The notes beneath the pieces are model-generated. The model worked only from the letters and a program-made list of their open reading frames with translations. It had not been told where the DNA came from and did no database searches. From the NCBI GenBank assembly GCA_008632985.1, contig QPGO01000159.1, positions 1 through 64,000 of the forward strand: a stretch of 64,000 bases of DNA. Direction: 5' to 3'. The stretch is from Psammoneis japonica. Its lineage: Eukaryota. The position numbers were made by a program, and so were the translations under genes. This document shows positions 1 to 64,000 of this stretch, one piece after another; the first letter of the stretch is position 1; each line of letters opens with the position of its first letter.

Positions 1-742
1 TACAATCTCCCACAATGAAGGAAACATGAGGCTGGGAGGCATTGGAGACTGAAGTGAAAACTTTCCCTGGATGACATTTGCAGCACTGATGGAAAACATT
101 TCATCCTTTGGCAACTCAACATCTGTTGCAATTGACACCTGTGAATCCTGATTAAGCTCAGCATTTCTTTTGGCTCCAATGAAGTTTGACAAAGTGGCCA
201 AAAAATGGTCAAGAAAGACCTGAAGTGCACAACACAACATTGGAAAAAGAATTGCTCTAAGACACAAACTGACAAAATGTTTTGCAGAAAAATGAAAAAG
301 CAGGCAGTGAGCCACATTTTGACACACCTCAGCATTTGTGAAATGAAGTTGCTCTTCCTCTTTCAAGCTTTGCAGATGATCTTTGGTGGACCCATTGACA
401 ACATATCTGGGTGGGTTGTACACATTGAACTGATGAAACATGTTCTGAAACTTTTTGGCAACTTTGTCATTGTATTCATCTACTTTTCTTGCTGCCTCAA
501 TTGCTGCTGAGTCTACAACAGTGTTGAATTCTTCCCAAACAAGCAAAAGCTCTCTCCAAATGGGCTCCAGGGATGGCATTGGACTGTCATTAAAGCTGAT
601 GTCAAACTGAAGAGGCTTGTACACTCCAGCTGCTGGCAATGCAAGAACATCTATTTGAAACACCTCTGGCAAAGCACTCATGGGAATGTTTGCAAGCCGT
701 GCAATGTCTTTTCCCCCTGAGTTGCAGACAGGTGCTGAAGTG

Positions 743-2233
743 TTAAGAAGTGTGCAATGGTGACTTGAAAGCATTTCTGCACATGACAAAAACTTGCTCA
801 CCTTGCACAGTTCGAGCCAAAAGATTTGTGCGCCTGTCAATCTCATCAACCAACTGAGTTATGCTCAATTTAAACCTTTCTTGAGCTTTTGCAATCACTT
901 GAAGCCTGTTGTTCAAAGGTTCAACAATGTGTTCATGCAAAAGGCTTTCCACACTGATGGAAACCCCAGCACAGCAGCTGGGACAGTTGTGATCAGGGTG
1001 GTGGTCATCTGATTTCAGCTGCTTTGATGAGCTGCCAGTCAAACAAGCAAAAAGAGTGTGAAACTCAATCTGCAATTCATTGAAGATTTCTGAAACATTG
1101 ACTGTTGCTTGCATGCTGACAAATGAGTCAAACTCTCCATAAGTAAAAAGTTTCAGATTCTTGAAATAGTCAATGTCATAGGCTCCTCTCTCAACCACAT
1201 ACTCAACAATGTGGCTCAGTGTGTTTTGGCTGCTTTCAACATATTTTCTCAAAGCAGAAAACATTTGAACTTTTTCTTGATTGGATTGTTCCTGAGCAGA
1301 CTGGTGTGTCACCTGTTGCTTCAAAAGCAGAGATTGCTGTGCAAGGGCAGCTTGGTCATAATTGGTGCATGTGGTGTTCTTGATCAACAATGGTTGAAAG
1401 GGATCACTTTGAAAAGAGCTCCCTTTTAGTTCATACAATTTCAAGAGAGCAGAAGTTGCCATTGCCATAAACTCAGTGCAGCTTTTCTGTTTTGTTTGCA
1501 ATTCATGCAGAAACTTCTTGTTCTTCTCTTGTGCAAACAACACCCTCTCTTTCTCCTTCAATCTACTGTTGTGAATGTTGTTCTTACAATGTTTCACCTG
1601 CATATTGATGCAGTGTGCAAAAGATTCACTTTCTTGCTTCAATGCACTCAATGATCCTGTGTAAACTTCTTTCTTGAAAGCCTCCCCAGTGGTTGTTGAG
1701 AGAGGAGAGCTGATGACAAATGACACAATGAAAGATGACATTCTCCAACTGGAAAACCACATTAAGACCACAGCAATGACAACCACCTTCATTCTGTTTT
1801 GAAGGAAGTGATGGGAATGTCTCTTCCTCTCTGCAGAAATTTTGGAAGCTTTGGTTTGATGCCATTGTTTGTCATTTCTCATGCCTCTGACAGAGCCAGA
1901 ACCCATTCCATCAGAAAGAACAGGTTGTTTGCCTGAACCAATGTTGACAGACAATTCAGCACTGTCTGAAAAAAGGCCATGAACAGATGCCAATGCTGGC
2001 ATGCTGCTCCATGTGCTGCTGGTGCCATTATTGGTGTGGCAGTTTCTTCTTGTCCTTCTTGGAGCATCCATGACCTTTTTTGTGATGTAAGCAGAGCCAT
2101 TGTCCCTTGCATCACATGGAACAGAAAAGCAATTGCAGTTTCTGCCTGAGGAAAGATGCTGCTCTTCATTGTGCCAGGTGTCACAGTTGTGACAGGAGGA
2201 GCAGAGCATTGCTGTGGGAAGTGGCTGACACAA
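743..2233 (-). pseudogene. Decayed gene of unknown function: hydrophobic segment followed by a coiled-coil-like region; probably continues toward position 1
   Basis: 496-codon ORF with VVVIAVVLMWFSSWRMSSFIVSFVIS and Q/E/K/L-rich helices. The DNA is nearly devoid of CG and poor in TA, so part of the ORF length may reflect stop-codon loss. Confidence 0.4.
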
Positions 2234-2397
2234 AAGAACAGGATGAAAAAAGCCAATGTGCTTGTTCTTCTAAGAAGATGCAAAGAATGTGACATCTGCA
2301 TGTTGTCTTCTGAAAGTCGTGATGAGGGTGATGTTTGTTTCTGAATGGTTTCATGGTAGTTTCTGCTTTTAATTAAAAAATGTTCATCACAATGACG

Positions 2398-2777
2398 TGC
2401 AGCATGCGTTGTAAAGTAGACGAAATTAAAGATATAGATACTTAAATATTATTATATATGTCAATCGTACGACAATCTTGGATGCGTACGACGGTAAGAG
2501 CGATCACACAGAATTGATCGGAAGTCTAAAATTGCAAATACAATCGATAGACGATGGTGACACACAAGATGTCAACATTGATCGTATCCGGACAATCTGT
2601 TGTCATGATTAGATTCTCCAAAAGGCCTTTGCTCCTACAGGAGTAGCACAATAGCTTTGCGCCATTGAGAACTTCTTCGGAGAATCCCAATGTCGTAGTG
2701 TAAAATCCAATCTCATAATTTTCACTTTTCATGATTTATTCAACTTTCGTTTATACTCAGTCTTCAATCACAGTGCA
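2398..2777 (+). mobile_element. Solo LTR related to the Gypsy-B family (diverged subfamily)
   Basis: Reverse-complement similarity to the LTRs at 8371-8737 and 14566-14932 (e.g. atcgtatccggacaatctgttgtca, tctcataattttcacttttcat). TGCA...TGCA termini; flanks GACG (2394-2397) and GATG (2778-2781) are a 4-bp TSD with one CpG decay. Confidence 0.85.
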
Positions 2778-3181
2778 GATGATGACTCTAGTGTTGCTAT
2801 TAGCATCATTTCTGTAGGTAGAAACAGTGCCACACTCTGCGCAAAAACTTCGATGGCGAAACCAAAAAAATGCACAGGTTCAGGCACAAAAACCATGACA
2901 CCGGATGTGACGTTTTTACAGCCATCAAGCACATTCTACACAGAAAGGTGTGGTGCTGGCACAGGCAATGACAATGTCTATGCATGCCCAAAACACACAC
3001 AAAGAATGTCAACACTGAACCAAGGATGTGCATGATGCAAACCGCATGAGCTCAAAATGTGAACTTCAATGAAGTGCAGAGGACAGACCATGTCTCACAA
3101 CATCTTGTTGAGGTGCACATCACTTGAGCACATAAATGTTGTTGCAGGCTAGTGCAAAAGCAATTCCTGTGGTCTAAAACC

Positions 3182-3627
3182 AGAATTGTGGTTCACACAA
3201 AACACGAAACAGAACTCCTCAATTTTCACCTTTCACGATCATCTTTCTTTCTTCTTGTTCACACAACATGTTCTCTGTCATTCCACACACCCATCTGTGT
3301 TCTTCCATCCAGTCTGTTCTTGAGGCAGGACTGGTCTGGGTTAGACTTCAACCCACGCAGAGTTTGGCCATAAGAAGTTGCTTCTCTGAATGGCTGCAAA
3401 ACTTGCTGAGACAACTTTAGTGTAAGAAAAGAATTGTGGTTCACACAAAACCCCAAACAGAACTCATCAATTATCACCTTTCACAATCATCTTCTTTTCT
3501 TTTTTCTTGTTCACACAACATGTTCTCTCTGTCATTCCACATGCCCATCTGCGTTCTTCCATCCAGTCTGTTCTTCAGGTAGCACTGGTCTGGGTTGGAC
3601 TTCATCCCAAACAGAGTTTGGCCATAA
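3182..3627. repeat. Imperfect direct duplication of a ~190-bp unit
   Basis: agaattgtggttcacacaaaac...gagtttggccataa at 3182-3373 and 3430-3627. The spacer contains tgcaaaacttgctgagacaact, which recurs almost exactly at 56521. Confidence 0.85.
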
Positions 3628-6600
3628 AAGCATTTTAGTCTATCGCACATAATTGTGTGTAATCTTAGCTCCTCGCATAACGTGCACAATGTAGTTTGCT
3701 TTTGAGCCACTTGGCTCACAAGAACAACAACAGTGGCACCGATGTCACGACACCAGTCTTTCAGCTCCTGCAACGGTCTCTGCACAGAGACTCATTTGCT
3801 GTTTAGACAGCAGTAAGGAGTTATTGTTTTCTACCACCCAGTCATCTCCAATTTTTGTCTGATTAACAGTCTTGCTCATTCTTACCCATTGAGCATTCAT
3901 CATCATCATTGAGAAAAATTTGAAGCATGTGCTTGCCTTCTTCACTGCTGGACATTGGATTGAATCTATATGTTTGGATCTATCCAAGACCTCACATCGC
4001 TGGGCACATTTATTCAACAGATGTTTGTTTGGTCAGGAATTCCCACATTCTCAGACATTTGAGATTCTGGATTCCCTAAAGCGGGTTCTACCCTGGTTGG
4101 CAGACAGACCAATCTGTCTGCACACGCTCACGCGCGCACGATACACTCCGACTGCCGTGACTGCTGCCCCATGTCTACCCCGGACTGCTGGTATTCTACA
4201 GTTCTACAAGGTCCACGAGGATGACTGTGAGAAGAAGCAGCTCGTGATTACAGCCTACATTGGTGTTCAGGGTGCATTTCCCACATTTGTTCGTTCCTCC
4301 ACAGCGCCAGTTTGGCCAGCCTGATCAGGTTATCCAACCGATGCAAAATAAGAATGGTTCAGGGGATTTGTCCACCTCTAGTTGGCTTGTCAGCAGGTGG
4401 CTTGTCAGCAGGGGTTTTTAACCTGTTACTCTGCTCTCAGGCAACCCAAAGTGTCAACAGCCACAGGTTCAGACGTGCCGGCACAACTCTACGGACCGGA
4501 TGGGAAGCTTGGCACACAACTACGAATGGGACAGCACAACCCGGCGGCTTCTGATTTGTGACATAGATCAAGATTCCAAGTCAAGTTTCAAGTCAAGTTT
4601 CAAGTTAAGTCAAGTTCAACCTCAAGTTCAACCTCTGGTCCAAGCACTGACACTCTCTTCAGTTGCACCATGGTCCTCACCCGACAGCAACAAATCAATG
4701 GCTTTGAGCACATCCTGGGCACTGTCCTGAACCAAGCTGTGGACAGTCCTTTGTACTCTGCCCTTGACATTGATGGGACTGACTCTTACCAGGATCTCTT
4801 CATGTTTGCTCTGGATCAACTTGACACCCTAGTTTACAATGATGGCACCAACCAACTTCCATTGCCACAAGGACACAAAGCACTCATAGTGGTGTTGATT
4901 GGTTTTTACACTGTAAAAGTGCATGCCAGCGCTGATGTTAGCAATGACCCCACTTTGTTCATGCTTGAAAAATTCACTGACTTTTGTCTTAGTCCCAAAT
5001 GTGCAGTGTCACTCTCCATGGGCTCTGCACCATCTGCCCCCACTCCTGGCTTGTTTCCTCCCAAACCATGTGACCCAGTGTGTGACTTCAAATGAGGCAT
5101 CAAACGTGACCCACTCACCTTTCCGTCTCTCAAGTCTGACAAGCAGTGGCACAGGTGGAACACCTCCATTGTTGTGCAAGCCCACTCTCAGGATGTCGAC
5201 AACATCCTTGACCCGAAGCACAAGCCCTCTGCAAATGAAGAGAAGGTTTTGTTTGAGGAACAACTGAAGCACATGTTTGCCATCTTTGAGTGCATTTTGC
5301 AAAGTGACAAAGGCAAGGCACTCCCCCTTGAGAACATGTTGACTCCTCTGATGCTCAAGGAGTGCTCAAGAAGCTCTCTGAGTGTGCGCCCTTGCATTTA
5401 CCCACACGGTGCTCAAGTTGTCAACCCTTCTCACCTGCCTTGCTGCTGCTTGTCTTGGTGATGGCACCTGGAAAGGCTCCACCCAGGCCTCCACACTCTA
5501 CTGGTGAGACCAACTTTGGAAGCATGAGGCTCCAATCCCAGACACAGATTGATTCTCTAAAGACCAGAAATGCATCATGCTGGAGAATGCCATCCACCCT
5601 GTCAAAGAACTTTGTTCCATCAAGAACCAAGCTGACCAGTGTCGCATGCAGCACGGCAAAAGCCTCACCTGCGAGCAACATTGTGGGCACCCACTTTCTG
5701 CGGCAGCGCAGTGTGACAGCACATTTGCACCCAAAACAGCCTCCCACACCCCACCTGAGCCAGCTGTGCTCATGACCTGGCACCTGATGACCCTGACAAT
5801 GATGTGGTTTTCGACATTGACAGTGATGTTGACATCATCCAGGCTTGTGCTTCTCAAACCCACAGTCCCTCTCTCACCAGGGAACAGTGGCGCCACATTC
5901 TGTGGGATCACCAGCACATCTAGGACAGCCTGCCTCAGTCCACCAAGGCCATCATCCTTGGATCACGCACTCCCCATTCCGGCAACTGTCATGAGTTGGA
6001 TGCTGTCAATCTCCACGACCTCCATCTCAGAAGCGATGGTGACGTCAATTTCCATGCCAATGCTCATGACATTGCCTTGCACACCGGGGCACCTGCTGAC
6101 ATGCATGACAGGACAGATGACAACCCCATCATGGCACACCTCATGAAGCACAAGCCTCTGCTGCCCAGCAATCTACAACATCTCCTGTTGTCTGACAAAC
6201 CTCCCTCCACTCGTTCTGGAGAGAAACCTCCTGGTTCAAAGCCCTCGCCTGCCAACACTGAGATCAATGGACACACTCATTGCCGTGTCAACAATCACAA
6301 CGTTGTCTGTTCTGCATCAACTCACAACTTGATACAAAAAAGAGCTTTGGTCAATCATGGTGCCAATGGTGGAATTGCTGGTGATGACGTTTGTGTCATC
6401 ACACACTGATGGGCAGGTTGATGTGCAAGGCATCAACAACCACCAACTCATCAACATTGCCATTGTCACTGCCGGTGGTGTCATCCACACACAACGTGGT
6501 CCCAGGATTGCCATCCTTCATCAGTGCGCTTGCACTGGCAAGGGCAAGACCATTCATTCTTGTGGCAAGCTCAAGTGGTGCAAGCACGATGTCAATGATC

Positions 6601-6906
6601 ACTCCATCACCAAGGTCCCCAATGGGCTGCAGCGCATTGCCACTGTTGATGGCTCCATCATTCCCAGCAACATCAAAGCTGGCTCACCTTACATTGCCAT
6701 GCACCCGCACACTGATGCCGAATGGGACAACCTGCCACACGTCATCCCCACTGGCAACAACACCTGGGATCCGTCCGCACTCGGCCACCAGTTCACTGAT
6801 GAAGAGACCTGGTAAGATGCCATGCTGCCATCTGGATGATTCCGACTGGCCATCCAAATCCCTCGAGTTACGTGGTTGCTTTGTTGGCATTGCCAAACAT
6901 GTGGGC
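3628..6906 (+). mobile_element. Truncated Ty1/Copia retrotransposon (family Copia-1, CoDi-like), copy 1
   Basis: Partial LTR to 3860 matches 30383-30627; the leader matches 21981-22810; gag starts MVLTRQQQ at 4670; protease-like ALVNHGANGGIAGDDV. Near 6820 it jumps into integrase sequence matching ~27800 (internal deletion) and is cut at 6906 by a CAGGG-type TIR end. Confidence 0.9.
4670..6815 (+). pseudogene. Copia gag-protease, frameshifted
   Basis: Consecutive ORF pieces 4670-5095, 5174-, 5577-, 5996-6409 and 6357-6815, homologous to the 22881-23825 ORF. Confidence 0.85.
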
Positions 6907-7080
6907 CAGGGACATGAATGTCCAGTCAGGCGAGATTGTGACTCCTGGCACAAAACAAATTGTACCTTTGCATTGATTTCTCCAAGGTTTATCCACACAT
7001 TTGCAGACGAACAAATGTCCAATGTTCACAATCAACATGGGCAATCCCTTTGACAGGCCAAAAGTGAGGGAAACAGCAAA
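6907..7080 (+). mobile_element. Isolated terminus of the CAGGG-type TIR element family
   Basis: cagggacatgaatgtccagtcag...gggcaatccctttgacaggccaaaagtgagggaaa matches the reverse complement of 10685-10848. Confidence 0.8.
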
Positions 7081-7094
7081 CAGAGGACGATAAA

Positions 7095-8370
7095 GCATGT
7101 CATGCGTGCAGCAATGGCACCCCTTCTTGGGCACAGCAGCTCTTTGCTGCACCTCCCAAAGTGGCCTCCTGATCCTCCGCCATGGCCATCTTTCTTTTTA
7201 TGGCTCCTTTCCTTTGCCATTGTTGCCATTGCCATTGTCCCTTCCTTCTGTCTTTCTTTGAACCCTTCCTCCGCTCCTTTTTCCTGTGCATCGCTGCACC
7301 CTTTGTACCAGCCCTCCATTTCCACGATTGCGATCTGCCTGTTCCTTCTGCCTTGTCTGCTTTCCTTAACCAATCATTCATTCCTGGGAGTCTCTCCTCC
7401 TGTCCTTCCTGCTGCCCTTTCCCTGCTCATGACTCCTCCTGCTCCTTTGGCCATAATTCCTCCCTTGCTTTTCCACAGCCCTTCGCGTGTTCTATCTTGC
7501 CCCCTTTCCTCAACCAATCACTTGCGTTTGCCAGTCTTTCCTTTACTTTTCTCAACAAATCATTTACCTCTGTCAGTCTCTCCTTCTGTCCTTCCTGCTG
7601 CCTCTTTCCTGTCCATGACTCCCTTTGTGCTTTTGGACACAATTGCCTCCCTACAGTTCCATGTGCTTCCCCATGTCTGTCTGAATGCAATTGCCTACGT
7701 CATTCCTCTACCTGCCATCTCCCTGTCCTTCCACACAGCTTCGCAAATTGCTTTGCACGTTTACTCCTGCCCTGCCTCTCTTTGGCTATCTCTACACAAC
7801 TCCTGTGGGCCTCCCGCAGTCTTTGGCAATTTGCTCACAATAAAGCTCTCTGCAAATTATTGCCTTTTTCTCTTTCGCTTTCAGCCAGGACTACTTCCGC
7901 TTCCTCTCCTGCAGCCAACGTCAAGCTTCTGGTTCAGGTGCTTCATCCCACTGATGCCCCTGATGTGCCGGCTGTTGCTCTTGCCTCCAAGGTCATCCAT
8001 GACATCATTCTCAAGATGCTTCAACATCATCAAGAGCGTCTTTCTCCGCTTCTCTTTACACTCAACTCTGTTGTGCTCTCTGAAACCAAGAAACGCTCCT
8101 GCCCTCATCAAAATCAGTGGGCTTCTTACTTCCATGTTACCCTCTGCCTGGCAATGCCCACAGGTTCCATCTTCAACTTCCTTCCCTTCCACAGTCAAGT
8201 GCTTTCCTTCCTTCCTCAAAAGTGGCATCTCCATCCCACCTACCACTTTGCTGTGTTTCACTCCATTGGCACCTCCCCCATCTTTCTTTATCCCATTTCT
8301 TGCCAACCCCTGTTGTGGATAATCCTTGGGCTTGGTGTTGCACCTTTGTGGTTCCCGCTTGCAACTCCTT
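7095..8370 (+). pseudogene. 5' segment of a non-LTR retrotransposon (LINE)
   Basis: Strongly pyrimidine-rich plus strand. Joins 14937 once Gypsy-B1 (TSD CCTT) is removed, and that segment joins the RT at 30633. The left boundary is approximate. Confidence 0.6.
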
Positions 8371-9001
8371 TGCACTATGCTTGAAGAACGAGTATAAACG
8401 AAAGTAGAATCAAGTATGAAAAGTGAAAATTATGAGATTAAATTTTACTCTGTGATTTTTGGTTTCTCCGAACGAGTTCTCAATGGCCTAAAGCTTCTGT
8501 ACTGCTTCTACAGACAAAAGGCCTTTCGGAGAATATATTCGTGACAACAGATTGTCCGGATACGATTGCTATTGACACGTAAGATGTCAACATCGTCAAT
8601 CGATCGTATTTGCAATTTTCGACATCCGATCAACTCTGTGTGACCGTTCTGTCCTTTGTACGCATCCACGACTGTGTAACGATTGACCTATAAATTATAT
8701 ATAATTATAAATATGTATATAACAGTCGCATACTCCATTCGCCTCCCTAATTGCACATTAGAGTTATTCGTTAAGTGAAATAATTTGACGGACATTGACA
8801 TTGTCAATAATGTCTCCACGTTAACTGTATTGTGCCATTAGCAATGACTGTTGTTGTTTCATATAGGCCAGCATAGGGCCGTTTCACTTTCCAAATGTCT
8901 TTCAAGAGTATCATGGTTTGTCTCACGCTCTATGTGTATATATAAACATACTGTAGTATTGCGTCGAGCATTCTCTCTGACATTATTTGTTCATGTGGAC
9001 A

Positions 9002-10848
9002 CAAGGACCAATTGTCCTGGATGTGACACGCGCACGTGTCGGCTACAGGGAGCTTGGCGCCTTCGCGTTGATTTTAAGGTTTATCCACATATTAGTAGTC
9101 ATATAAACATATAATGTTAAAAATTAACACGGGCAATCCCTTTGATAGGCCAAAAGTGAGGGAAACTGAATCTCAAGCTCTCACGCACACCCACCGACAT
9201 GATGCCACACCACCTTCATTCCGCCGTTGTTCTCCTTCGTGATCCCGCTGTTGCTCTCCGTCGTGGTCATATGCCAATACGTTCACTTCTCTGTTGGATT
9301 ATTGTGAGCAAATGCATTTTGCAAATGCCATTTTGATTCCTCTTGCCACTCCATTTTGTTGCTTCTTGTGGCGTGTGAGTATTTGCCGAAAGTTTTTTGA
9401 ATGCCTGTCATTGTGTTGCTGTATTTCATTGCGTTTGATGCATCAAATTTTGCCATGCCCCTCATTGTAAGCGTCTTCCTTTTCTTCTTTTCAGTGGCTC
9501 ATTGAAACTCACATGTGTAAGAAACTCATGTGAAGGCAACTCAATCGACAACTCATAATTCATTGTGTGTGTGCATCACGTGATGCGTGTCTCCACGAGG
9601 TGTGCACCATTGTTAAACTTTTGGGTGCATCTACGACAAGCATTTTTACTTACCCTTGTTGTGTGGTTCATGCCATCAACGGTTCCGACTTGAGCAATGG
9701 TGTAGGTTCCTTCAGAAATGCCGCGTCGTGAAAGCAAATCCGAGTGAATGTCAGTTTCAATCTACGGGTGCTTCAATGCAAGGTTAAGCGAATGGCAGTT
9801 TCCATCTCTACAGGTACTTCGATTCTTACGATTCATGCTGTGGTGCGTGTGTGGCATCTTATTTTTGCAGTTCCCCATACAATGTAATTCTAACATTTTA
9901 TTTTAAGTAACAATGAATTTTTCATTTTCGTAGTTAACCGAAAAGTAATCACAAAATTCAAGAATCTATACTGTAGCTGTGTGTTTACACAGCTGCTCGT
10001 CCTGCTAAGTAGTGAAGGTTTTTCTCTACTCTACCTGTTCACCTCTACGGTAGTAGAGCTAGCTCTAGCTTAGCTCCGAGGCCAGTAGACTCATTCTCTT
10101 TACTGGCTACAGTAGAGATTGGAGCTCTCTCTAGAGTAGCTAGCTAGCTAGCTAGCTAGACCGAAAGGCAATCACAAAATTGAACAATCTATGACTGTGT
10201 GTTTATTCAGCTGCTATGTGGTAAAGGTTTTTCTCTACTCTACCTATTCGCCTCTTGTAGAGCTAGCTCTAGCTTAGCTCCGAGGCCAGTGGAATCATTC
10301 TCTTTGCTAGCTAGAGATTGGAGCTCTCTCCAGAGTAGCCAGCTAGCTTCTCTCCACTGGAGCAGAAGCTAGAGTAGAGGGTCAAGCGAGCTTCTTCAGT
10401 TTTCCACTGAACGTTCTAAACCCTGCAGATTTTTCATGAGCTCGCGGGGTCAAAGGTAAATTGGCACATGGTTGCTCGGCCCAAATGTCACCGCCGCCGA
10501 GACACCGTGCAGTACATCTGAAGCTTGAATCTTGTTTTCTGGCATTGAGCATCTCCACATATGCAAGTAAAATGATCAGTCGTGGTTGCTACATAGTTGG
10601 TCGGGGCAAGAAGTGCTTGTCTTTTCTCATAAGATGTGCACTTTGTGTTGGCGCCGCGTCAGAGCGTGTTGTTTGATTTTTTGTTTTCCCTCACTTTTGG
10701 CCTATCAAAGGGATTGCCCATGTTAATTTTTTAACATTATATGTTTATATGTCTACTGGTATGTGGATAAACCTTAAAATCAACGCGAAGGCGCCATTTG
10801 TTTTGTACCGCGTGTCACATCCCGTCTGACTGGACATTTATGTCCCTG
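9002..10848. mobile_element. Non-autonomous TIR DNA element (hAT-like CAGGG terminus) inside Gypsy-B1
   Basis: ~110-bp near-perfect inverted repeats at ~9057-9167 and ~10685-10796; termini caaggac.../...gtccctg; no TSD found. Confidence 0.7.
9938..10350. repeat. Two tandem ~200-bp units rich in AGCT/TAGC
   Basis: Units begin at 9938 and 10161 (ccgaaa(a/g)g(t/c)aatcacaaaatt); (TAGC)n run at ~10137-10159; the same array recurs at 54259-54640. Confidence 0.85.
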
Positions 10849-16331: not shown

Positions 16332-16773
16332 TGACAGGATTTGAACAAGATTTTAGTTTATCATACATAATTATGTGTGCTCTTAGTTCCGCGCGCATCG
16401 AGCGATGTAGAATAATAACAGTGGTAGTGCCGATATCACGACACCAGTCTTTTGGCTCCTGTAACGGTCTCTGCACGGAGACTCATCTGCTGTTTAGACA
16501 GCAGTGCAAGCTCAAGCTGAGGTTGATGTCAAAACAAAGAAGTGAGTAGACCGAAGAGAGGGAGAGCCTGAGCGTTCAGCGAGCGCTGGCGAGCCCTCTC
16601 AAACGGCTACGTTAATCTAATATCCAAAATTAATACTATGTGTCAGAAGCGTGCGAGTGAGTTACTGAACTCTTCCCTTCCATGATCCGAAAGAACTAGA
16701 GGATCATGTAAAGGGCCAAAACCAAAGAAATTATACAGGAGGAAACCCAGGTGTTGGGAAGAAAACCCCCTGA

Positions 16774-19881: not shown

Positions 19882-19890
19882 ATCCTGCAG

Positions 19891-27065: not shown

Positions 27066-27069
27066 CCCG

Positions 27070-43180: not shown

Positions 43181-43380
43181 AAAAAGAGGCGAATCATAGC
43201 TCAACGGCAGGAACAAGGCAAACGGTGTTTGACGCGTTCCAGCCCTAGGTGGGAGCTCGTAGTACTGACGTGTGACACAAATAATTTTTATCATCCGTCG
43301 TATATTTCGCACGTACATTTCTACGTGTCATATTTAAAAAAAATTGTCCAGACTTGCTGTTTTGCGAAGCCCCAGACGTT

Positions 43381-51873: not shown

Positions 51874-51892
51874 TACTAACTTACTGATTTAT

Positions 51893-53122: not shown

Positions 53123-54258
53123 TTCTGGAAGAATTCATCCAGCTCTCTTCAAATCATTGCGTAGTCGAGAGTCGAAGTACTGCTATCGGCCTGATTCATT
53201 GCGTTGATTCCTGTTGGCGGCGGCGGTGGTGCTAGTTGTTGTTGCTCACACATTTCTTGATACTCTGCGCCCATGTTTTCCATCTCGTCCCTGGAGAACT
53301 CATTCTCATTTTGCGCATCATCAACAGAGATGACTTCTTCTTCATAGAGGGCATCAGCCTCGTCAAAATGATGCTCAGCAGGGCCACTCATCGTGAACTA
53401 CACACACGCACTTCAATACAGAGAAGCGATCTGTGTTGGCTGCAGAAAATCTGTTTTCGAAAGTCGCAATTTCCGTTGTCGTAGAGGCTACGAGCTGATT
53501 GGTAATGTTGCTATACATATACTTTAGAGCATTAATAATGAACATTAAGTAGCCGCTCATATCCATCAAATGTCTCCCGGCCAGACAGACGGTGTCCCGC
53601 CTAGGTTTACTCTGAGCCTGTGCATTTTCGGCTCTACTGACGTCAGGTATGTACACAGGTATGGTCCAGTTTGGGCAGGGTCTAAGCAGTATGACAACGT
53701 ATTTTGATTAATCAAATGTATATGATGAAAAACAGACCTCAATACATAAATCATTATGTCACAGTCATCACGAATGTTTATATGTCTTAGCCAACATATT
53801 CCATCCACAAACATTCCGTCCACTAACGTCATGTCTAACGGATCACAGCTCTGGTCTCCAAGAGCATATCGTTCATATCCATGAATATTGATATATATAT
53901 ATATAAAGGACTCAGCGATTACGCGAGCAACCATGGGACCAACATGGCGCTTACGGCAAAAAATCGATCGATCGCAACGATACCGTCGTACCGTTCGCGA
54001 TGCCCGTTCCAGGCGGTGAACATCATAGCGTATTGGCTCTGATAAAGTGAATAAATGCTACCATGATAGCTAAGAATCGGGTGTAAGACAAGACGGAGTG
54101 TTGAACAGCATCAACAGGTTCTAGAATTGTGAGATGTTACGCTACTGGGACCACTAAATAAGCGATAGTGGACCAATCGCCAATGGTATATAAACTGCCT
54201 ATATTCGTGACAGCACATCAGCATTTATTCATTTCTGTTCCTCCTCCTGCCCTCTAAA

Positions 54259-55153
54259 CCAAAAGGTAATCACAAAATTCAACAATCTATGACTGTGTGT
54301 TTACACAGCTGCTCATCCTGCTAAGTGGCAAAGGTTTTTCTCTACTCTGCCTGTTCACCTCTAGCTAGCAGAGCCAGCTCCAGCTTAGCTCCAAGGAGAG
54401 TAAAATCATTCTGCTAGCTAGCTACACTGAAAGGTAATCACAAAATTCAACAATCTACAACTGTGTGTTTACACAGCTGCTCATCCTGCTAAGTGGTAAA
54501 GGTTTTTCTCTGCTCCACCTGTTTGCCTCTAGCAGAGTAGAGGCAGCTCTGGCTTGGCTCTGAGACCAGCAGAATCATTCTGTTTACCAGCTAGAGATTG
54601 GAGCTCACTCTAGAGAGTAGCTAGCTGGCTTCTCTCTGCTGGAGCAGTGGCCAGAGCAGAGAGTTCAGCAAGCTTCTTCAGTTTTCCACTGAACGTTCTA
54701 AGCCCAGGAGATTTTTCACAAGCTCGAGGGTCTTGGGTGGTAGAGCCCCAGGCACCATCAGGGACACAAAGCAGAGCAGGTGGGAAATGATGCCTTGCAA
54801 TGGTGCATGATGTCTTTCATGAGGTAAGTCTGTCCTTAATGCTGGGCATGCAACTTGCAGCTGCAAGAACAAACAACCACTTAATGAGGGATGTGCTTGT
54901 CAAGGGGTCAAAAAGGTAAATCGGCACATGGTTGCTCGGCCCAAATGTCACTGCTGCCGAGACACCGCACAGCACATCTGAAGCTTGAACCTTGTTTTCT
55001 AGTGTTTTGCATCTCCACATGTGCAGGTAAAATGACCAGTCATGGTTGCTGCATAGTTGGTTGGGGCAAGAAGTGCTTGTCTTTTCTCATAAGATGTGCA
55101 CTTTTTGTTGGCACCATGTCAGAGCGTGTGTTGTTTGATTTTTTGTTTTTCCC
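54259..55153 (+). repeat. Second copy of the interior of the 9002-10848 element
   Basis: Matches 9938-10690, including the tandem units and the HGCSAQMS block, with an extra ~170 bp. Confidence 0.88.
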
Positions 55154-55762
55154 AGAGTGGAAGGTGTGGGAGACATGAGGGGCAGCAGGAGGCATCAAAG
55201 TAGCTGCCAAATTGGAGAGAGAAGATGGTAAAGGCATGCAAGAGAAAGAGGTGGCAAAGGGTGGTGGGACCACAGCAACATCAGGAGCACCAAAAGAGTT
55301 CTCAAAGGCAATTAGGGAGGCAGGAACCTGACAGACAAAAGGAACGGGGAGTTTGCCAGCAGCTTCATAGTCACAGAGGCATGCGCAAATGGAACCGGCA
55401 AGGGCTGGGGATGGTGTGAAAATTCTTGGATCAACAGCATAAGCAAGTGCCAGGAAGGGAAAGAATGATGGATTAAAAGTGGCACCAAGCTTGTGAAGGA
55501 AGCGGCAGACCCGGGGAGGGCAGGAAAATGATGGGAGTCTGGGAAGAGAGCCAAATGGTCAAAGAGGAACCAGGCAAAATGGGGTGGCAGCAAAAGGATC
55601 ACAGTCAGAATAGGAAGAAGATTTGGGTGGGCAGCAAGCAGAGGCAGGGTGGTGTCATGCCAGGAGAAGTCTGGCAAATCCATGTCAGAGAGACACCGAT
55701 GTAGCAGAGGAACAGAGGCAAGAGATGCGGTGAGTCTTGGGGATGCCAGGTCTGAGCAGAGT
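55154..55762 (-). pseudogene. Probable LINE fragment
   Basis: Only compositional evidence: pyrimidine-rich minus strand like the LINE segments. Confidence 0.35.
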
Positions 55763-55764
55763 CA

Positions 55765-56520
55765 AAGAATGGGGTGCATGCAGACCTTCTTGTGTCCCGC
55801 TGGAGCATTGGAGTCCTTACAGTGCCTGCAGTCTTGGAAGACTTTGCACTCATCAAGTTGATTCATCTCAAGGTCCATTGCATCTCCCCACTTGCAGTTG
55901 CCATTGCACTCATCCATGGCCAGGGCATGCTTGTAATCACATGGCACTTCTCATCCACACTTGCAACATGGAGCAGTGCAAAACGAGTGCAGCTTGGCTT
56001 GGTTGGCCATGTGGAACAGTTTCTGCTGGCACAGACCCATTTTCCGAAAACGCTTCCATTCCTCAGTTTTGAGGAGGCCATGCTCACGTGCATAGATGGC
56101 ACATGTAATGGGACCATCCTTGGCAATGAGGGCAAGGGGTTCAGATGTGATCTCCCCACTTTCCCATTCAAGTGTGACATTGCAGCTTGAGCCTTTCCAG
56201 GAGGGGTTGTGAGGTCTCAATGGTCCTTCATGTGACACAATACATCAGAATTTCCAGATGGTGATGTTGTCTCCTTCTTGCTCCATGTGGTGGATGATGT
56301 CATTGCAGTCAAGGATTTCCTCATGCTCATCGTTGTTGATGGATCAGATGAACTTGATGAGTTCCGGGTTGTTGCCAATCTCCCAGTTGTGGTCTTTGAT
56401 GGCTTTGAAATTTTGGGCCCTGTAGCGCTGTCTGTTCTCTTGTGCTTTCCTGAGGAAGGTACATCCAACTATGTTCTCGGGGTCAAAGACTGGCATCTTG
56501 GGCATCCCGATCTCCTCCCC
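55765..56520 (-). pseudogene. Copia-1 pol fragment
   Basis: Reverse-complement match to ~28066-28815 (EWESGEITSEPL, KWGDAMDLEM). Confidence 0.9.
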
Positions 56521-57745
56521 TGTAAAACTTGCTGAGACAACTCACATGACAAACAAATCACAACAGGAATGCTGCTTTCGAAAATGAGCCATGACACAAA
56601 ACTCAAAAATTGCTTGAGGTTGTCCGCAGAATCTGCCACACATTGTGTGCCTAAATTGCTGTCTTCTCACAATTTTTTGTGCAAAGATAGACTTGACTGT
56701 CATCTGATCAGGTGCATTGTTGCAAATACATTGTTCTAAAATGTGCCTGATCAGTCAACAGTCAAGTCCATTTTTCACAAATTAATGTTTTTCTCAGCAA
56801 CATTTGTGCAAATATTTGCTGTACAAGCAGGGAAAGTTTTGTGAAAGTCTGTCCATTAAGCACTCATTTGGAGGATGGTCAGTCACTTGTTGATTTCACA
56901 AATGATGTTGAAGAGCACCAGAGCATTTGGTTGCTGATGGAGCAGGAGAGTTTGCTTGCAAAAGAAAAGAATTTATGAAGCATGCAAGAAGAATGAGGAT
57001 CCGATTACATGCAACAGAACATGAAAGGAACAATCAAAATTATGTGGCTGAGAGATTTGAATGTCATCACACAGCAGGAAAGAGGTGTGGCAGTTGAGAA
57101 TGACCTAAAAGAAAGCACCAAAACGTTCATGAGATTTTGGACTGGTCTTTATATGAGGTGGAACTGCTGTGGTGCATGGCACATGGAAAAGACTGATGAA
57201 CTGAGTTTGAAGAGGTCACAGGATGAACACCTGAAATAGGGGAATATTTGGATTTATGAATTTTGTTATCTTGTTTGGAGGTGGGATCACCCTGACAAAC
57301 TCAATGTTTGTAATGATCTAAGGAGACCAGTGCATTGGCTTGGCACATCTCACAAAGTTGGCTCAGACACATGCTGTTTGTTGATCACTGAGGAGGAGAG
57401 TGTGGAAGATGCACTTCAGATTGATGAGGAGGTTGCAAGGCCATCAACAAGGAAATGTCAAAAGTGAAGGTAGCATGGAATGAAGAAGATGGTTGCACTC
57501 CAGAACAGATCAGACAAGGCAAGAATCCAAGTGTGGTTGGGTGTCAAGATATTGCAAATCACCCAGTCTTTGATGTCGACATGGATTTTATGAGGAAAGC
57601 AACCCCCCAACCCCAACCCTGCACAAGAAGCACAATGCAACAAACAATCACATGGTGCAAGAAGCTGTTGCAGTGGGTGTTGTGAGAGTTGGAAAGGAAG
57701 ATGGTGGTGAAAAAACTTAGCGGATGTTTTGCTGCTCAGAAAAGA
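56521..57745 (+). pseudogene. Highly decayed, deleted Copia relic (third family)
   Basis: MSKVKVAW...TPEQIRQGK...VGCQDIANHPVFDVDMDFMRKA and RNase H-like HMVQEAVAVGVVRVGKE. Confidence 0.65.
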
Positions 57746-57796
57746 TAGAATGCATGCTTCTTTAATTTGTTTTGGAAGGTCCAGACACCATGGTGA

Positions 57797-58754
57797 GGCC
57801 AACCCTGGCCAAGCAAAAAAGGAAAATGAAAAAGAGCCAGCCTCAACTCTTTTTTCGTTTTGTTGTTTTGTTGACCTAACCAGCATGAAAAACAACAAGA
57901 GCCAAACATCCGTGTGTCTTGGGCATTGCTGATGATAAGAAAAGCAAGAGGCCCAACATGACAATGAAGATGACAGCCCAGGATGGCATCAAAGTTCCAC
58001 CTATGACAATGAGAATAACACCATTAGAACCACCATAATTTTCTTAGCATGCGGGTGCTGTTTCTTGTTGTGTTCAGTGCAAATGCAAGAGGCTCATGGG
58101 GTGACTTAAGTGGTTGTCACGTGGAAAGTTTTTGTGCACTTCTCAGGCCATTTCAAGCTCTTAATCTAAAAGCAAACAACACAAGAATAGCACCATTGAA
58201 CAAGTCACATCTAAATTAGTCAGTGTGGTTATTTCTGTGTCATGACAGATCTGCATCAGAGACCTTGTGTATTGACTCTCTATGATGCACATCAAAACCG
58301 GCAAAATCATTTGAAGACAAAAGGTTGGTTGTAAAAGGACTGCAGCAGCATGCTTCACCATTGCCTACAAGAGACACATTATGTCTACTTCACATCATTG
58401 ATTGGTGTTGATTCTAAAGTCGTGATGTTGAAAGAAGTCATCAAAAACAAACACAGACTGCCACATGCCAGCAACTTGATGTGGTGCGTGAGGTGAACTT
58501 TGGTTTGCTTTAAGTGTCCGGTGTAAACCAAAATGCATGTACATACTGTGTGACAGCACATGGCCCACATCACTCTTTTTTCTCTTTTTTCATGCTTCTG
58601 GGTTGTGATAAAAGAGTTATTTTGGCTGACTTGAAAAGAGTCATTTTGGCCGACTTGAAAAAGAGTCAAGGGTGAAAATCTGGGCAAGGCAGTTTGAGCT
58701 TTTCCAGCTATTTTGTCTTTTTCATTTTCTTTTTTTGCTGGGCTAGGGTTGGCC
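57797..58754. mobile_element. MITE-like element with GGCC termini (Harbinger/Tourist-like)
   Basis: ~40-bp imperfect TIR ggccaaccct(g/a)gcc(a/c)agcaaaaaa(g/a)gaaaatgaaaaaga; TGA on both sides (57794-57796, 58755-58757). Confidence 0.7.
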
Positions 58755-61373
58755 TGACTGGTCAGAAAGATGAAAACACATGCTTTAAAATTTGTTTTAG
58801 CAGGCCCTGATGCCAAGGCCAGAGACCTGGGGTACATTGACCATTGTGTTCTTACCTCCCAGACCAAGTGTCACTTTGTGGCTGTAAGCTTGGGTTGTGT
58901 GTTTTACTTCCTACAAGGAAGATGTTTCAGTGATTTGACTGGCTGACTCAGCATCGGCTCACGGGGACCAAATGAATTGTGATGGTCTGACTGACTGTTT
59001 GTTCAGCAATTGCATTTGCATGTGGTGTGACATGTGTCAGATGTTTTCAATGCTTGACTTTGGCCATAATTTTTAGTTTCTAATCATGGTGTTGATGTTG
59101 AGTGTTCTTTAGATGAATTCTGGGTCCATTGGATGCACTTTCCTACATCAGCCATGTGACAGGTCAATGCTGGTGGGGAGGGACCCTGTGTCAGTCTTCA
59201 ATCTAATGGCAACTGTCCATTGCCAATCCAGGGGGTTTACACAGACCCAACCCAAAAAACAGGTTTTTTGACAATGTCAAAAAACTGGACCATGACTTTT
59301 TGTTACACTCCCTGTGCATTGCACAAGTGGTTCATGGTGGTTCACTGTTTTCGGGGTTGTCTAATGTGCAAACAGCCCAGAGTGTAAAAGCAATCTCATT
59401 CATCATTTTTCAACTTTTTGACCATTTCTGAGTGTCAAACATTGATGTCACTACACAGTCTTTTTTTGAAGGGGTTTTGGGGAGTTTGCAAATGGGCTAA
59501 ATGCATCACACAACACATCTGTTGCTCTAAATTCTCATGCTGACAAAAACAAGCAATTCTGGGTTGCTGTTTTCTTAGTTGTTGTCACTGTTTTTGAGCA
59601 TGCCATGGTTGCTGTGGTGTGTTGTGATTGATGGTAACATGAGATTCATAGGGACAGAAAAGAAATGACCCCAATGGAGGTGTTTCTTGATGTTTTTTTT
59701 GATGCGTGTTGTGTGATGACATCATCACATGTGATGTCAATGTTGCACTGTGATGCTTTTCATGATGACATCATGCCACTGTTGACACTTAAATGCATGA
59801 AACAGGATGATGTCAATGTGATTAATGACTCAGTGGGTTGGCAAAATCTTTGGACAATCCACACCAGGTCATTACCCCATTTCTATGAGCACTTCCCACA
59901 CAAAAATTGTGCAATGTACTGTGAAAGAATTGAAGCTCCAAAGCCTGACATTGTTCTTTTGTTTCTTGCTGTGCCATCCCCAAGTTGCACCCACCAAAAT
60001 GGCACCCATCTGTTGCCCTTTGCACCACTGCCACAAACTCCCCTGTCCTCAAACCAATGGCCTTCAGGGCCAAGAAGGCCAGAGCACAGGGGCAGGTGGT
60101 TGCCAAAGAGACTGTGCTCCTCAGTGCAGTGTTTTGGTTGGAATATTTTGTTTGGAAGAACAACACAAAAACAGAGCCTTGGCCAAGCACTGGAGTGTTT
60201 TGCAAAATGCACAGTTGTCCACTGCATTTTGAGGCATCCATCCACATCAATTTTTTGTCATGGGGAAAAAAGAGTGGTTCTGGCTGCTCAGCTCTGCGGG
60301 TGTGTGACAGTCAAGCAGCCTGACAGACAGACAAGCATGACAGGCCCTGCCCATGTTGCAAAGTAAGGCAATGGTGTTGGCAGCATGTTGGTTTTGGTGC
60401 CACCACTCTTTGCTTATTTGCACAATGCTGAAGTTTCTTGTGGGAGAATGTGACAAGAAACAAGAAGCTCGCAAACAAGCACAGCAGGCTTCACACTGCA
60501 AAGCAAAGCAAAGCAACAGCTTGAGTGGCATCTCAGATTTGCACAGCAATGCTCCACATCACCACTGTGCAAGGCAGAAATTTCTCACTCAACAATGGGG
60601 TCATGCCAACATTTGCTGTGGCCATTGCTTTTTCAACTGGCACTTGCTGGGCCAACATCTGACAGGGGCTGCTGTTGTTTCAAGGGCACTTTTGAGGCAC
60701 ACCTGCATGCAAACTCACTGAGAATGGTGTGAACTGGAAATCCAAGTGAGCAAACACACTGTCAATGACTGAGTGGACACAGCCCAAAATGTGAGACCAG
60801 CACAAAGTGCTCTCCACCAATGGCAGTGTTTTCACATGGGTGCCATGCTCCAGTCTTTTCTAGAGATGCTGATTTTTTGCACCTGGTGAAAACAGCTCTT
60901 TCCTGACAACATTGCTGAAAAAAAAAGAAGAGCACCAAGCAGCTTTCAAGGAACAGCCTGTGTGACTGGAGATGCAAAGAAGCCACTCAAAGCAAGGCTC
61001 AAAAGTGCTGCCCAGGGAGGCAACACAGTGCTGCCACCCTCCCTGGGCAAATTCTGAGGGCTGAAGCTGGCTGCTCTCCTCACTTTTGTGTGCACTTGCA
61101 CCCAAGACATTTTTTGTGGTGATGAGAGCTTCTTCTCTTTCTGAGGAGAGTTGGTCATGATCACCCATGAAAGGCTAACCCGAAAGTAACCCACCAAACT
61201 TTGTTGAGTGAAATGACTCCGATGATGGATCGCCGGCCTGTCAATGTTCAATGACCTTCCTGGAAGAAAATGCTGGCTTTTCTCCTTCTCGCATCTGTGT
61301 GCAGCACTCCATTACAACAACAACAAAAACAACAACAACCATCTGCCATTGTTGTATTTTATAACCCCCGGTC

Positions 61374-62300
61374 ATGGTGTCCACCAGCTCTTCTCCTGAC
61401 AACGAAGTTTTCATCAACAATGTTGAAGTGACTGACATTGAAGGTGATGACAACAGCAATGACCATGATGCCAACAGTGACCCAAACAAGAGCAATGCCC
61501 ATGACAGCAATGCCAATGAGTGCACTGATGACAGTTCACACCAATCTGATGATGATGACACCACTGACAAGGATGACCAGACCATGGACCCTTCAGAATG
61601 GCTCAGGAAGTCATGGCTGCTGATGGGGTGGCTGACAAAGTCACCACTGGCTCTCCCTCCAACCCACCCAAATCTTCTGCTCATGATGCTCATGCAAGTC
61701 TGCCTGCATCCCGCCTGGATTCGTTGTCTTTTGTTTCAATCCCAATGTTCATGGAAGGCCACTGCATTCACTCTCAGGAGTGCCCCCTCAAGGAGCAAAG
61801 CAAGGAGCTTGTTGCAAAGGACCGGCTGACTGCCAATCTTTGTTGTGAGATTGACAGCTTGCCCCCATCCAAGGATGAGATTCTGGATGGCTCTGAAAAC
61901 CAACAGTGCTTGGATGGATTCAAGCAAAAGTGTTGAAAGATGTTTCCTGTTGGTCATCATTTTGCCAGCAACAAACAGCTGCACCAGGCTGCGGTCCACT
62001 TCGTCAACATGTGGGCTGTGAGCTGTGTCCTTGATGGCAAGAGGGTGGTCTGTCAATTTTCTGACACAAAATCTGAAGCTTACAAACAGCACAAGAGGAA
62101 AGTGTGTGTGCCTTGAGGAGTGTTGTTACTTTGTGCTCCTGCAGTCCATGGAGGAAATGATGGATGGAAAATGGTCCATCAAAGACGTTTGCTTTTTATT
62201 TGCCGACCAAATGCTGACCCAAGGTTTCTCCTTTGGTGTGATTGTTGTCACACATTTCTCAAAGTGTGGCCAAAGCAAGGAAACTTTGGAGTGTGTTCCA
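61374..62300 (+). pseudogene. Decayed gene, possibly the N-terminal part of a MULE-like transposase
   Basis: Acidic N-terminus followed by FPVGHHFASNKQLHQAA..F...WA; family assignment is from memory and weak. Confidence 0.3.
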
Positions 62301-62307
62301 CTGTGAG

Positions 62308-64000
62308 TGACAGAAAATGAAGATGACTGGGTGGAAGAAAACAATGACTCCTTACTGCTGTCTAAATGGCAGATGAGTCTCCGTGCAGAGACCGTTACAG
62401 GAGCCGAAAGACTGGTGTCATGATATCGGTGCTGCTGTTATTATTCTTGTGAGCCGAGTGGCTCGAAAGCAAACTACATCGCGCGACGCTCGCGAAACTA
62501 AGAGCACACATAATTATGTGTGATAAACTAAAATCTTGTTCAAATCCTGTCAGTCCCCAGTTTGCTTGAGGGGTCAACAGCGATAGATTCGAAGTCGGAT
62601 TGGTTGAAAGCCTCGGGATTCAAGTTCCAAAACATTAGAGGACGAAGGAGGTTCCAGACTTGGGAAATGCTTGCTTAGGATGTCAGCCGGGTTGCGGGAG
62701 CCTTTGATGAAATGAAACTCAAGGAAACCGGAGACAATCGCCTCACGTACACAATGGAACGAGAGGGCAGTGTGTCGCTTGTGTAACTTGGAGTGCGGGA
62801 TGGTGGCACTATCCACAACTGACTTGTTGTCCCCGAACATGTAACATGTTTCACGAATGGGAACGCCAAGGTAACGTAAAGTGATGCGCAGATCAATGAT
62901 CTGCTCAATGCACGTCCTTGTGGCAACAAACTTGGATCCATACATGGCAGTCTCGACTGTTGCTTGTTTCTTAGAGAACCAATCAGCCGGAAACTTGTTG
63001 AGGAAATGGAGGATGCCGGTGATGGAGCGTCCAGTGAGCATGCAATGGAACAAGTTCGCATCAACGTAGTGTGTGGTGGTGACGAACTTGCCAAGCAGCT
63101 CAGGTGCATCTTGCGGGAGCAGCTCTTCTACCTCCTCATATACAGATTGAGCCCAGTCATACACGGGCTTAGGGAGGTCCGAATGGTCGGGCTCCTTGGT
63201 GTGCACTCAGAGGGCGCCATGACGCATCTTGGAGAGGAATCCGCAGATGCGTTTGGCACGGTCTAGGTGGCCTTGGCGGGGCGCTGCACGGAAGCTAGAC
63301 AGGGACATGACAGCCATAGTAATGTCAATGCGACCTAGAGACACGGCCCATTGCAGGGATCCAATCAAGGATTGGAATTGGTGGATGCCCTCCAGTTTGA
63401 GTAATTCGGAGGTGTCAAGCTCAGGGTGGTCACCCTTGTCAAGGGGGTGAAAGCATATCAGTGCGGGGCTTCTCCCCCAAAGAGGCGCGCATAATTGTCA
63501 ACCATGCGCTCAATGTACTTGCGGGGAGCAAGGCACAGGGTACCGTCTGGGTCACGGGTGAAGTCGCAGCCAAGATGGAACTCCAATGGTCCAGTGCCCT
63601 TGAGCTTGAACTTGTATTTCTCCATGAGGGTGTCTGCAAAAGCCTGGGGGTCCTTCATGGCAAAGGCTAGGTCGTCCACATACACTGCCACGTATTTGTA
63701 GTGGTCACCATTCCTGCGCAGCCAGATGTTGGGTTCGGCTTTGCACGGGAAGAAGCCTTCGGCACGCAAGCAATCGGCAAAGCGTTCATGCCATCTGAGG
63801 CCGGAGCTGCGGAGTCCATACAAGGCCTTGTGGATGACAAGGATGTGTCCTTCCAGCTCACCAAACTCGGGGCCTGCTACAATGTACAGTTTCTCCTTGG
63901 TCGTAGCTTCAAGACAGGAGGCATTCCCAATGTCAGTGGCCCAAGTCTCTAGTTCGTTGAGTTCGGCCAGAAAGATCATCATTCGCAGGCCATGGAGAGA
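62308..64000 (-). mobile_element. Copia-1, further copy: 3' LTR with RT and RNase H, runs off the window
   Basis: LTR 62308-62552 is the reverse complement of 30383-30627; ORFs 62574-63206 and 63458-63982 match 28930-30340. Confidence 0.95.

Follow-up and report, generated by a model that had tools for sequence, protein, structure and literature searches.

Among the described processes that change bases in a dinucleotide context, the closest to the one treated here is known from Bigelowiella natans, where integrated viral DNA undergoes TpA hypermutation (Mettrop et al., bioRxiv 10.64898/2026.01.13.699255, version 2026-04-14); this is the single preprint in which a full-text literature search found a TpA>TpG/CpA process. 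In this study, we examined a 64-kb window (contig QPGO01000159.1, positions 1 to 64,000; "the window" is this whole stretch), which is eukaryotic, transposon rich, and 46% G+C. Using Pfam, tblastn, and self-BLAST, we identified one Ty3/Gypsy element with an open pol gene (Gypsy-A), two degenerate Gypsy elements (Gypsy-B1 and Gypsy-B2), two sister copies of a Copia element (Copia-1 and Copia-1′), and one split Copia element (Copia-2). The affected loci are long terminal repeat (LTR) retrotransposon copies and neighboring, presumably silent single-copy DNA, and we interpret their changes as DNA-level TpA>TpG/CpA hypermutation of selected loci by adenine-deaminase chemistry, with a rough probability of 0.55. 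A preliminary description of the window, made from its sequence, had named no described mechanism that its author knew of; this is superseded by the B. natans report of the same spectrum.

According to the available text of the preprint, 231 of the 302 nuclear point mutations in 15 mutation-accumulation lines of B. natans fell into two integrated viral regions, and 230 of these 231 were A>G or T>C, all at TpA (10.64898/2026.01.13.699255). The rate was about 6e-7 per site per generation compared to 3.5e-10 elsewhere, and the mutations occurred in 11 of the 15 lines as bursts of about 1000-fold. The larger viral region is single copy and silent. Genome-wide, 124 clusters of TpA-poor, CpA+TpG-rich windows were found, and TpA-poor genes were enriched in reverse-transcriptase and DDE domains. 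As the responsible enzyme, the authors put forward a DNA adenine deaminase of the ADAT2 type, with an ADAT2 homolog as candidate, and they cite ADAT2 action on DNA in amphioxus and trypanosomes (10.64898/2026.01.13.699255).

The window resembles this system in the TpA>TpG/CpA context, the involvement of both strands, the apparently local occurrence in mobile or foreign DNA including single-copy DNA, the runs of 1-kb bins in which TpA is low and CpA+TpG is high, and the many affected open reading frames (ORFs) that cannot be annotated. It differs in its LTR retrotransposon targets (the terms CpG, LTR, and retrotransposon do not occur in the accessible part of the preprint), in an equally strong CpG decay that covaries by copy, and in a possible strand bias. 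Since CpG decay is strong here and the hypermutable regions of the preprint show hardly any G:C>A:T change, either two separate processes or a different variant of the process would be at work.

Fungal repeat-induced point mutation (RIP) likewise disables mobile DNA after insertion in a dinucleotide context and with copy-to-copy variation. However, RIP converts CpA to TpA and leaves AT-rich DNA, whereas affected parts of the window show a TpA observed/expected ratio (o/e) of 0.24, CpA/TpG ratios of 1.6 to 1.7, and unchanged G+C; moreover, neither is duplication needed here, a single-copy stretch being the most depleted, nor are stop codons created. CpG decay by deamination of 5-methylcytosine (5mC) matches the 8-fold-raised CpG>TpG/CpA changes on both strands of the same elements but accounts for the CpG half only, as TA>TG/CA cannot come from 5mC. 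TadA/ADAT-type enzymes edit mRNA in bacteria and fungi; the window shares with TadA/ADAT2 deaminases the A preceded by U or T and the change of Tyr (TAY) to Cys (TGY) that is typical of their off-target editing, although their natural substrates are tRNA or mRNA and the substrate here is chromosomal DNA.

Polarized transitions in retrotransposon copies

For polarization, each of four retrotransposon copies was read against alignment columns with at least 60% agreement among its homologs (120 to 150 per copy), after removal of ORF fragments in the wrong frame (c2_c, c2_d, c1_b, c1_up, c1_up2, and c1p_b2). Only nonsynonymous single transitions were counted and stop-making changes were left out; synonymous sites are invisible to this method. 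Pooled over the four copies, A>G or T>C changes were found at 45/278 TpA sites and at 8/1142 other A/T sites (odds ratio, 27.4; P = 1.3e-25). The enrichment over other contexts, whose absence had been named beforehand as grounds for giving up the TpA hypothesis, is thus present. CpG transitions were also raised (59/354 versus 28/1145 at other C/G sites; odds ratio, 8.0; P = 1.7e-19), with C>T before G at 26/146 and G>A after C at 33/208 sites.

In the pol ORF of Gypsy-A, 100 of 565 conserved columns were changed relative to 120 aligned homologs. Tyrosine was the most-changed residue, with 10 of 25 conserved columns affected (4 Cys, 5 His, and 1 Phe). When each of the 120 homologs was used as a pseudo-query, Tyr>Cys/His changes averaged 2% and reached at most 3/25, compared to 9/25 in the Gypsy-A of the window. 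In all six Ile>Val changes the mutated A was preceded by T, and one Val>Ala change was GTA>GCA. A>G occurred at 10/51 sites after T and 1/219 sites after other bases, and T>C at 6/42 sites before A and 2/188 before other bases, giving 16/93 TpA sites versus 3/407 non-TpA sites; both types of event alternated along the element and were unclustered as judged by eye. At CpG, C>T before G amounted to 7/49 versus 4/156 and G>A after C to 4/60 versus 6/176.

Copia-2 (120 homologs) carried A>G at 20/76 sites after T versus 2/289 after other bases and T>C at 4/57 sites before A versus 3/225 before other bases, in total 24/133 TpA versus 5/514 other sites; CpG transitions were 30/160 versus 13/531. Eleven Tyr>Cys changes faced a single Tyr>His change in this copy, the corresponding numbers in Gypsy-A being 4 and 5. 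In Copia-1 (plus strand, 142 homolog segments), A>G after T (1/15 versus 0/75) and T>C before A (4/16 versus 0/60) added up to 5/31 TpA versus 0/135 other sites, with 12/49 versus 3/173 at CpG. Copia-1′ showed no change at 21 TpA sites, yet CpG transitions at 6/36 versus 2/109 sites.

Every peptide string quoted in the preliminary description as a case of lost tyrosine was found at its element, but not all of them were on informative columns. The five Gypsy-A motifs (FLGHWL, PVACWSRKL, MAHPNH, GKYRHCRL, and ARHPRP) all lie on columns with 81 to 100% Tyr in the 120 homologs. Three of the four Copia-2 motifs lie on conserved Tyr columns; the column of DSCAANV is variable (F 38, Y 35, and V 27 of 120), and in VGCKHVDCH the second C stands for a Cys that 108/120 homologs share, rather than for a mutated Tyr. 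Among the sister-copy examples, SVCG/SVYE is polarized, with Tyr in 93% of homologs, while DNCA/DNYA and PDYS/PDHS fall on variable columns in which Tyr is merely the commonest residue (44/105 and 23/81, respectively). The supposed long interspersed nuclear element (LINE) with the motif SCIDD was not confirmed, as its ORF (30748-31551) gave no Pfam reverse-transcriptase match even at an E value of 5.

Strand symmetry, as first proposed, holds insofar as both strands were mutated, but they were mutated unequally. Grouped by window strand, TpA events comprised 34/151 A>G on the minus strand and 11/127 on the plus strand (P = 0.002); grouped by element sense strand, the numbers were 31/150 versus 14/128 (P = 0.03), with T>C on the sense strand making up 14 of the 45 events. 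The bias is therefore better explained when events are sorted by window strand than when they are sorted by element sense. The three informative elements, with minus-strand A>G in excess, are located at 16 to 47 kb. Up to 44 kb the G-C skew of the window is negative and beyond this point, to 64 kb, it is positive, with a cumulative minimum near 44 kb, and strand bias and skew together may hint at a replication-linked asymmetry. As for the base 3′ of TA, A (2/49) seems disfavored compared to T (19/71), but this is confounded by codon structure.

Unpolarized rates were taken from 17 nonredundant repeat pairs (from 32 high-scoring segment pairs). Transitions per pyrimidine site were 0.107 before A, 0.117 before G, 0.064 before C, and 0.061 before T; such pair rates understate the TpA effect because TA is the rarer state.

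Timing, locus specificity, and loss of CpG

LTR pairs provided the timing of the changes. In Gypsy-B1, the LTR at 14567-14932 has three TA>TG changes and one TA>CA change at sites where its partner keeps TA, a directional count of 4 to 0. At the differing sites, the Gypsy-B2 LTR, which carries TpA changes of its own, and a solo LTR of the family both match the TA state, and TA is therefore ancestral. Between the two LTRs of Gypsy-A, the differences are TGTG/TATA, two sites derived from CpG, and one transversion; a former CpG now reads CTG in one LTR and CCA in the other. Since the LTRs of an element are identical at insertion, the TpA differences between them arose in chromosomal DNA. The LTR-pair differences first noted for Gypsy-A and for Gypsy-B1, with Gypsy-B2 as reference, are thus present in the sequence, and the opposite polarity, with TG/CA as the ancestral state, is contradicted by both the homolog consensus and the outgroup LTRs. 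Taken together, LTR pairs, polarization, and sense-strand T>C bear out the proposed DNA-level, post-integration conversion of TpA on both strands, with other contexts barely affected, and we regard a TpA-targeted process acting after insertion as very probably real.

The footprint of the process was also visible in composition. Over the whole window, o/e values were 0.495 for TA, 0.644 for CG, 1.40 for CA, and 1.36 for TG, with the other twelve dinucleotides between 0.93 and 1.13. TA ranged from 0.06 to 0.93 within the window; in 2-kb bins it spanned 0.08 to 0.93 and CG 0.03 to 1.09, both being lowest together. Over 63 1-kb bins (one gap-containing bin was dropped), TA and CG were correlated (r = 0.68, P = 9e-10). 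The dinucleotide thresholds of the B. natans preprint, as given in its available text (10.64898/2026.01.13.699255), were passed by 18 of the 63 bins, including uninterrupted runs of 5 bins (3 to 8 kb) and 7 bins (55 to 62 kb); in the 18 bins only TA (0.24), CG (0.24), CA (1.59), and TG (1.70) deviated from about 1; G+C was 47% in depleted bins and elsewhere alike. The preliminary description was right that the repeats are affected, but the strong CpG>TpG/CpA decay that tracks TpA loss by region and by copy had gone unnoticed.

Sister copies differed in both losses. The Gypsy-B1 segment 12760-14934 has lost 41 TA and 30 CG, compared to 14 and 13 in its Gypsy-B2 sister (24897-27067), and a copy at 54 kb has lost 16 TA and 7 CG, compared to 4 and 0 in the copy at 10 kb. 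Because sister copies are of equal age and yet unequally mutated, TA and CG losses are a property of the locus and not of age alone. The internal region of Gypsy-B1 is only mildly depleted (TA, 0.69; CG, 0.87), and 10 to 12 kb is close to normal. The intervals 9937-10348 and 54254-54593 share short tandem duplications with a unit of about 170 to 210 bp, and the 54-kb copy is the more TA/CG depleted of the two. The repeat at 4670-6670 (about 25 copies by depth) has a TA o/e of 0.07 to 0.12, and contigs at least 90% alike map to it; much of its depletion may be shared, in which case it would be older than the spread of the family.

Read support came from one public run that contains 88% of the sampled words of the window. 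Contigs at a depth of about 36 agree without a single difference with approximately 8.5 kb of single-copy stretches, including the whole of 1-2532, which is single copy by depth and the most depleted stretch of all. Exact contigs thus carry the TG/CA variants in extreme single-copy stretches. As 1-2532 is single copy, the process does without present-day repeats, and the restriction to repeats in the original hypothesis was not borne out. Among the 40 listed of 268 sites that vary in other genomic copies, 34 were transitions, 12 of them TA<>TG/CA and 10 CG<>TG/CA. Summed contig depths at 16009-16675, 3336-4669, and 8005-8671 were 8,600 to 25,500, compared to about 36 for unique DNA, which points to LTR or repeat families of several hundred copies; the LTR-A family has hundreds of copies by depth.

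Candidate mechanism and rival explanations

The natural tRNA target of the ADAT2/TadA family is an A preceded by U. In the mechanism that we propose, an ADAT2/TadA-type enzyme would deaminate A to hypoxanthine at 5′-TA-3′ on either strand, and the following replication would take hypoxanthine for G. Silenced chromatin, probably with methylated cytosines, would be where the enzyme is recruited. The same copies also lose CpG to TpG/CpA, as expected from deamination of 5mC, so that TA and CG, which are the self-complementary steps of pyrimidine and purine, are both erased and CA/TG accumulate. Targets are thereby disabled through missense changes (Tyr to Cys/His and Ile to Val), with long frames left open. 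Judged from the mutation spectrum, an adenine deaminase has a somewhat less than even chance of being the cause. By analogy, we infer that the process is of the same kind as the hypermutation of viral DNA in B. natans.

Several points weigh against the deaminase interpretation. The deaminase step is deduced here from DNA sequence, and because TpA is self-complementary, either its A or its T may be the base under attack. In the accessible part of the preprint, the hypermutable regions of B. natans show almost no G:C>A:T changes, compared to 59/354 at CpG and 28/1145 at non-CpG sites here. The strand bias (34/151 versus 11/127) is unexpected under a simple symmetric model. CpG decay without TpA changes in Copia-1′ shows that the coupling between the two losses is loose. 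Many of the changed columns did not enter the counts because they held transversions or multistep changes (60/100 in Gypsy-A, 83/155 in Copia-2, 18/38 in Copia-1, and 11/19 in Copia-1′), and the public run may be the assembly's own data and hence not independent.

The ambiguity of the attacked base leads directly to an alternative in which a TET/JBP-type enzyme oxidizes thymine at TpA to 5-hydroxymethyluracil, 5-formyluracil, or a base-J-like product that mispairs with G and yields T>C. In some protists, TpA is where modified thymine is concentrated, and 5-formyluracil is able to mispair with G; 5-hydroxymethyluracil of the dinoflagellate type is a lead solely within this explanation. The signature on a self-complementary step would be identical, the polarized counts fit equally, and covariation with CpG loss suits enzymes that act on 5-methylpyrimidines (5mC and T). 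We nevertheless consider thymine oxidation unlikely, as the authors of the preprint favor adenine deamination and found an ADAT2 homolog (10.64898/2026.01.13.699255). The covariation of TpA and CpG losses by region (r = 0.68) and by copy could also come from biased repair, in which a TDG/MBD4-like T:G glycosylase in heavily methylated chromatin excises T from T:G mispairs left by replication errors in the TpA/TpG context and so fixes TpA>CpA/TpG while guarding CpG. Among the sequence contexts of thymine DNA glycosylase, TpG.T ranks second, and in Escherichia coli CTAG is depleted by very-short-patch repair. CpG decay without TpA changes in Copia-1′ speaks against biased repair, and the B. natans bursts, about 1000-fold and in 11 of 15 lines in the part of the preprint available, suit an inducible enzyme better than replication errors; we therefore rate this explanation as quite improbable.

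Editing of retrotransposon RNA before integration, by ADAR or ADAT acting on A at UA sites and followed by reverse transcription, would agree with the sense bias of Copia-2 (11 Tyr>Cys versus 1 Tyr>His; A>G at 20/76 versus T>C at 4/57) and with the preference of known RNA deaminases for U before the edited A, as the preprint states (10.64898/2026.01.13.699255). Sense-RNA editing cannot be the sole cause, since T>C on the sense strand accounts for 14 of the 45 TpA events. In addition, paired LTRs differ at TpA, the most depleted stretches are single copy and unrecognizable as retroelements, and the bias follows window strand better than sense strand (P = 0.002 versus 0.03), which makes pre-integration editing very improbable. 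TpA is mildly underrepresented in most genomes, and it could be argued that no special process exists and that the data reflect selection against UpA and CpG in RNA that is expressed, a composition inherited from ancestors, or an artifact of sequencing or assembly. Twenty distant metagenome relatives of Gypsy (27 to 54% identity) show TA o/e values of 0.58 to 1.01, and the sole supporting run may not be independent of the assembly. Against this, the changed Tyr residues are conserved in 81 to 100% of homologs, LTRs are mutated as well, sister copies differ, and TA o/e values of 0.06 to 0.17 lie far below the controls and are backed by exact k-mer contigs at a depth of 36; we deem such an explanation extremely improbable. 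Long-read basecalling errors at modified bases were considered separately and judged unlikely, being countered by the exact contigs of depth ~36 over depleted single-copy DNA.

The process is of interest in several respects. TpA-specific A:T>G:C hypermutation runs counter to the near-universal G:C>A:T mutation bias, and the window corroborates the B. natans report independently at the sequence level. It adds LTR retrotransposons as targets, post-insertion timing from LTR pairs, a copy specificity that tracks CpG decay and suggests that chromatin or methylation state guides the targeting, the survival of long ORFs, and a possible strand bias that may help to identify the attacked base. Should the window come from a species other than B. 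natans, the defense would be more widespread than known. A natural TA-preferring DNA adenine deaminase would also be relevant to base editing. In a broader and rather unlikely version, again outside B. natans, one machinery directed to particular loci, e.g., a dual-specificity ADAT2-like DNA deaminase at silenced chromatin, would attack both the A of TpA and the (methyl)C of CpG and represent a widespread eukaryotic defense against retrotransposons and viruses. Such a defense would be distinct from RIP in that it disables by missense and leaves frames open.

Open reading frames and other features of the window

By the genetic code, no TpA>TpG/CpA change makes a stop from a sense codon; TGA arises only from TAA, and TAA and TAG are themselves erased by a TpA change, giving Gln, Trp, or TGA. 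The window holds 66 ORFs of at least 150 amino acids (aa), compared to 11.8 ± 3.3 in 100 Markov simulations that kept local dinucleotide content and in which the longest ORF had 394 aa. This excess probably exists because TpA>TpG/CpA changes cannot create stops and remove TAA/TAG. Many of the 66 ORFs overlap on both strands and have no homologs. Most long ORFs had no Pfam match, several ORFs of 400 to 500 aa had neither homolog nor domain, and for the ORF at 746-2269 (minus strand) no homolog was found among the 8000 best-matching candidates scored. This suggests that the orphan ORFs of 400 to 500 aa are relics of coding sequence disabled by missense changes. Surviving open frames thus probably explain the many unannotatable ORFs and are apt to mislead gene prediction in genomes of this type.

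The features of the window are compiled in Table 1. LTRs were also looked for in Copia-1 and Copia-2, and none were found; Rfam and tRNA scans of the window gave no matches.

Table 1. Retrotransposon parts and dinucleotide-depleted clusters in the 64-kb window (dinucleotide values are o/e)
Feature	Position	Strand	Description
Extreme TA/CG-depleted cluster	1-2000		TA 0.17, CG 0.00-0.07; holds a 508-aa ORF without homologs
Solo LTR, Gypsy-B family	2432-2777	-	Outgroup for polarization
Depleted cluster	3001-8000		5 consecutive 1-kb bins with TA ≤0.43 and CA+TG ≥1.52
Gypsy-B1 LTR	8372-8737		96.4% identity over 366 nucleotides (nt) to 14567-14932
Gypsy-B1 internal region	8738-14566	-	Degenerate pol remnants (tblastn)
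Gypsy-B1 partner LTR	14567-14932		LTR with the TA>TG and TA>CA changes
Gypsy-A LTR, left	16502-16667		166 nt, 96.4% identical to 21761-21926
Gypsy-A pol ORF	16774-19890	-	1038 aa, open; reverse transcriptase, RNase H, integrase (Pfam; 120 homologs); TpA and CpG changes present
Gypsy-A LTR, right	21761-21926		Pairs with 16502-16667
Gypsy-B2	23822-27065	-	Partial sister of Gypsy-B1, LTR at 26699-27065 (self-BLAST)
Copia-1	27608-30302	+	Reverse-transcriptase region and C terminus (tblastn; Pfam RVT_2)
Copia-2 pol, C-terminal half	33960-36599	-	66% identity to homolog P0129, residues 493-1370
Copia-2, N-terminal half	45397-47061	-	48% identity to homolog P0129, residues 1-489
Depleted cluster	55001-62000		7 consecutive bins of the same kind as at 3001-8000; 60-61 kb: TA 0.06, CG 0.03, CA+TG 1.88
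Copia-1′	62310-64000	-	Sister of Copia-1, 92% identity; continues past the window end

Between the two halves of Copia-2 lies a nested insertion, about 9 kb long (36600-45400). It harbors a 517-aa ORF (38824-40374, plus strand) similar to transposases of the Plavaka/CACTA type (Pfam E value, 0.0017; 28/30 Atlas matches), a gap of N at 41498-41948, and a 497-aa ORF without family (43384-44874, minus strand). Outside the insertion, the ORF at 50980-51870 gave a weak match to a TNP-like GTP-binding insertion domain (E value, 0.0025, under the curated cutoff) and may be the remnant of a further CACTA-type transposon.

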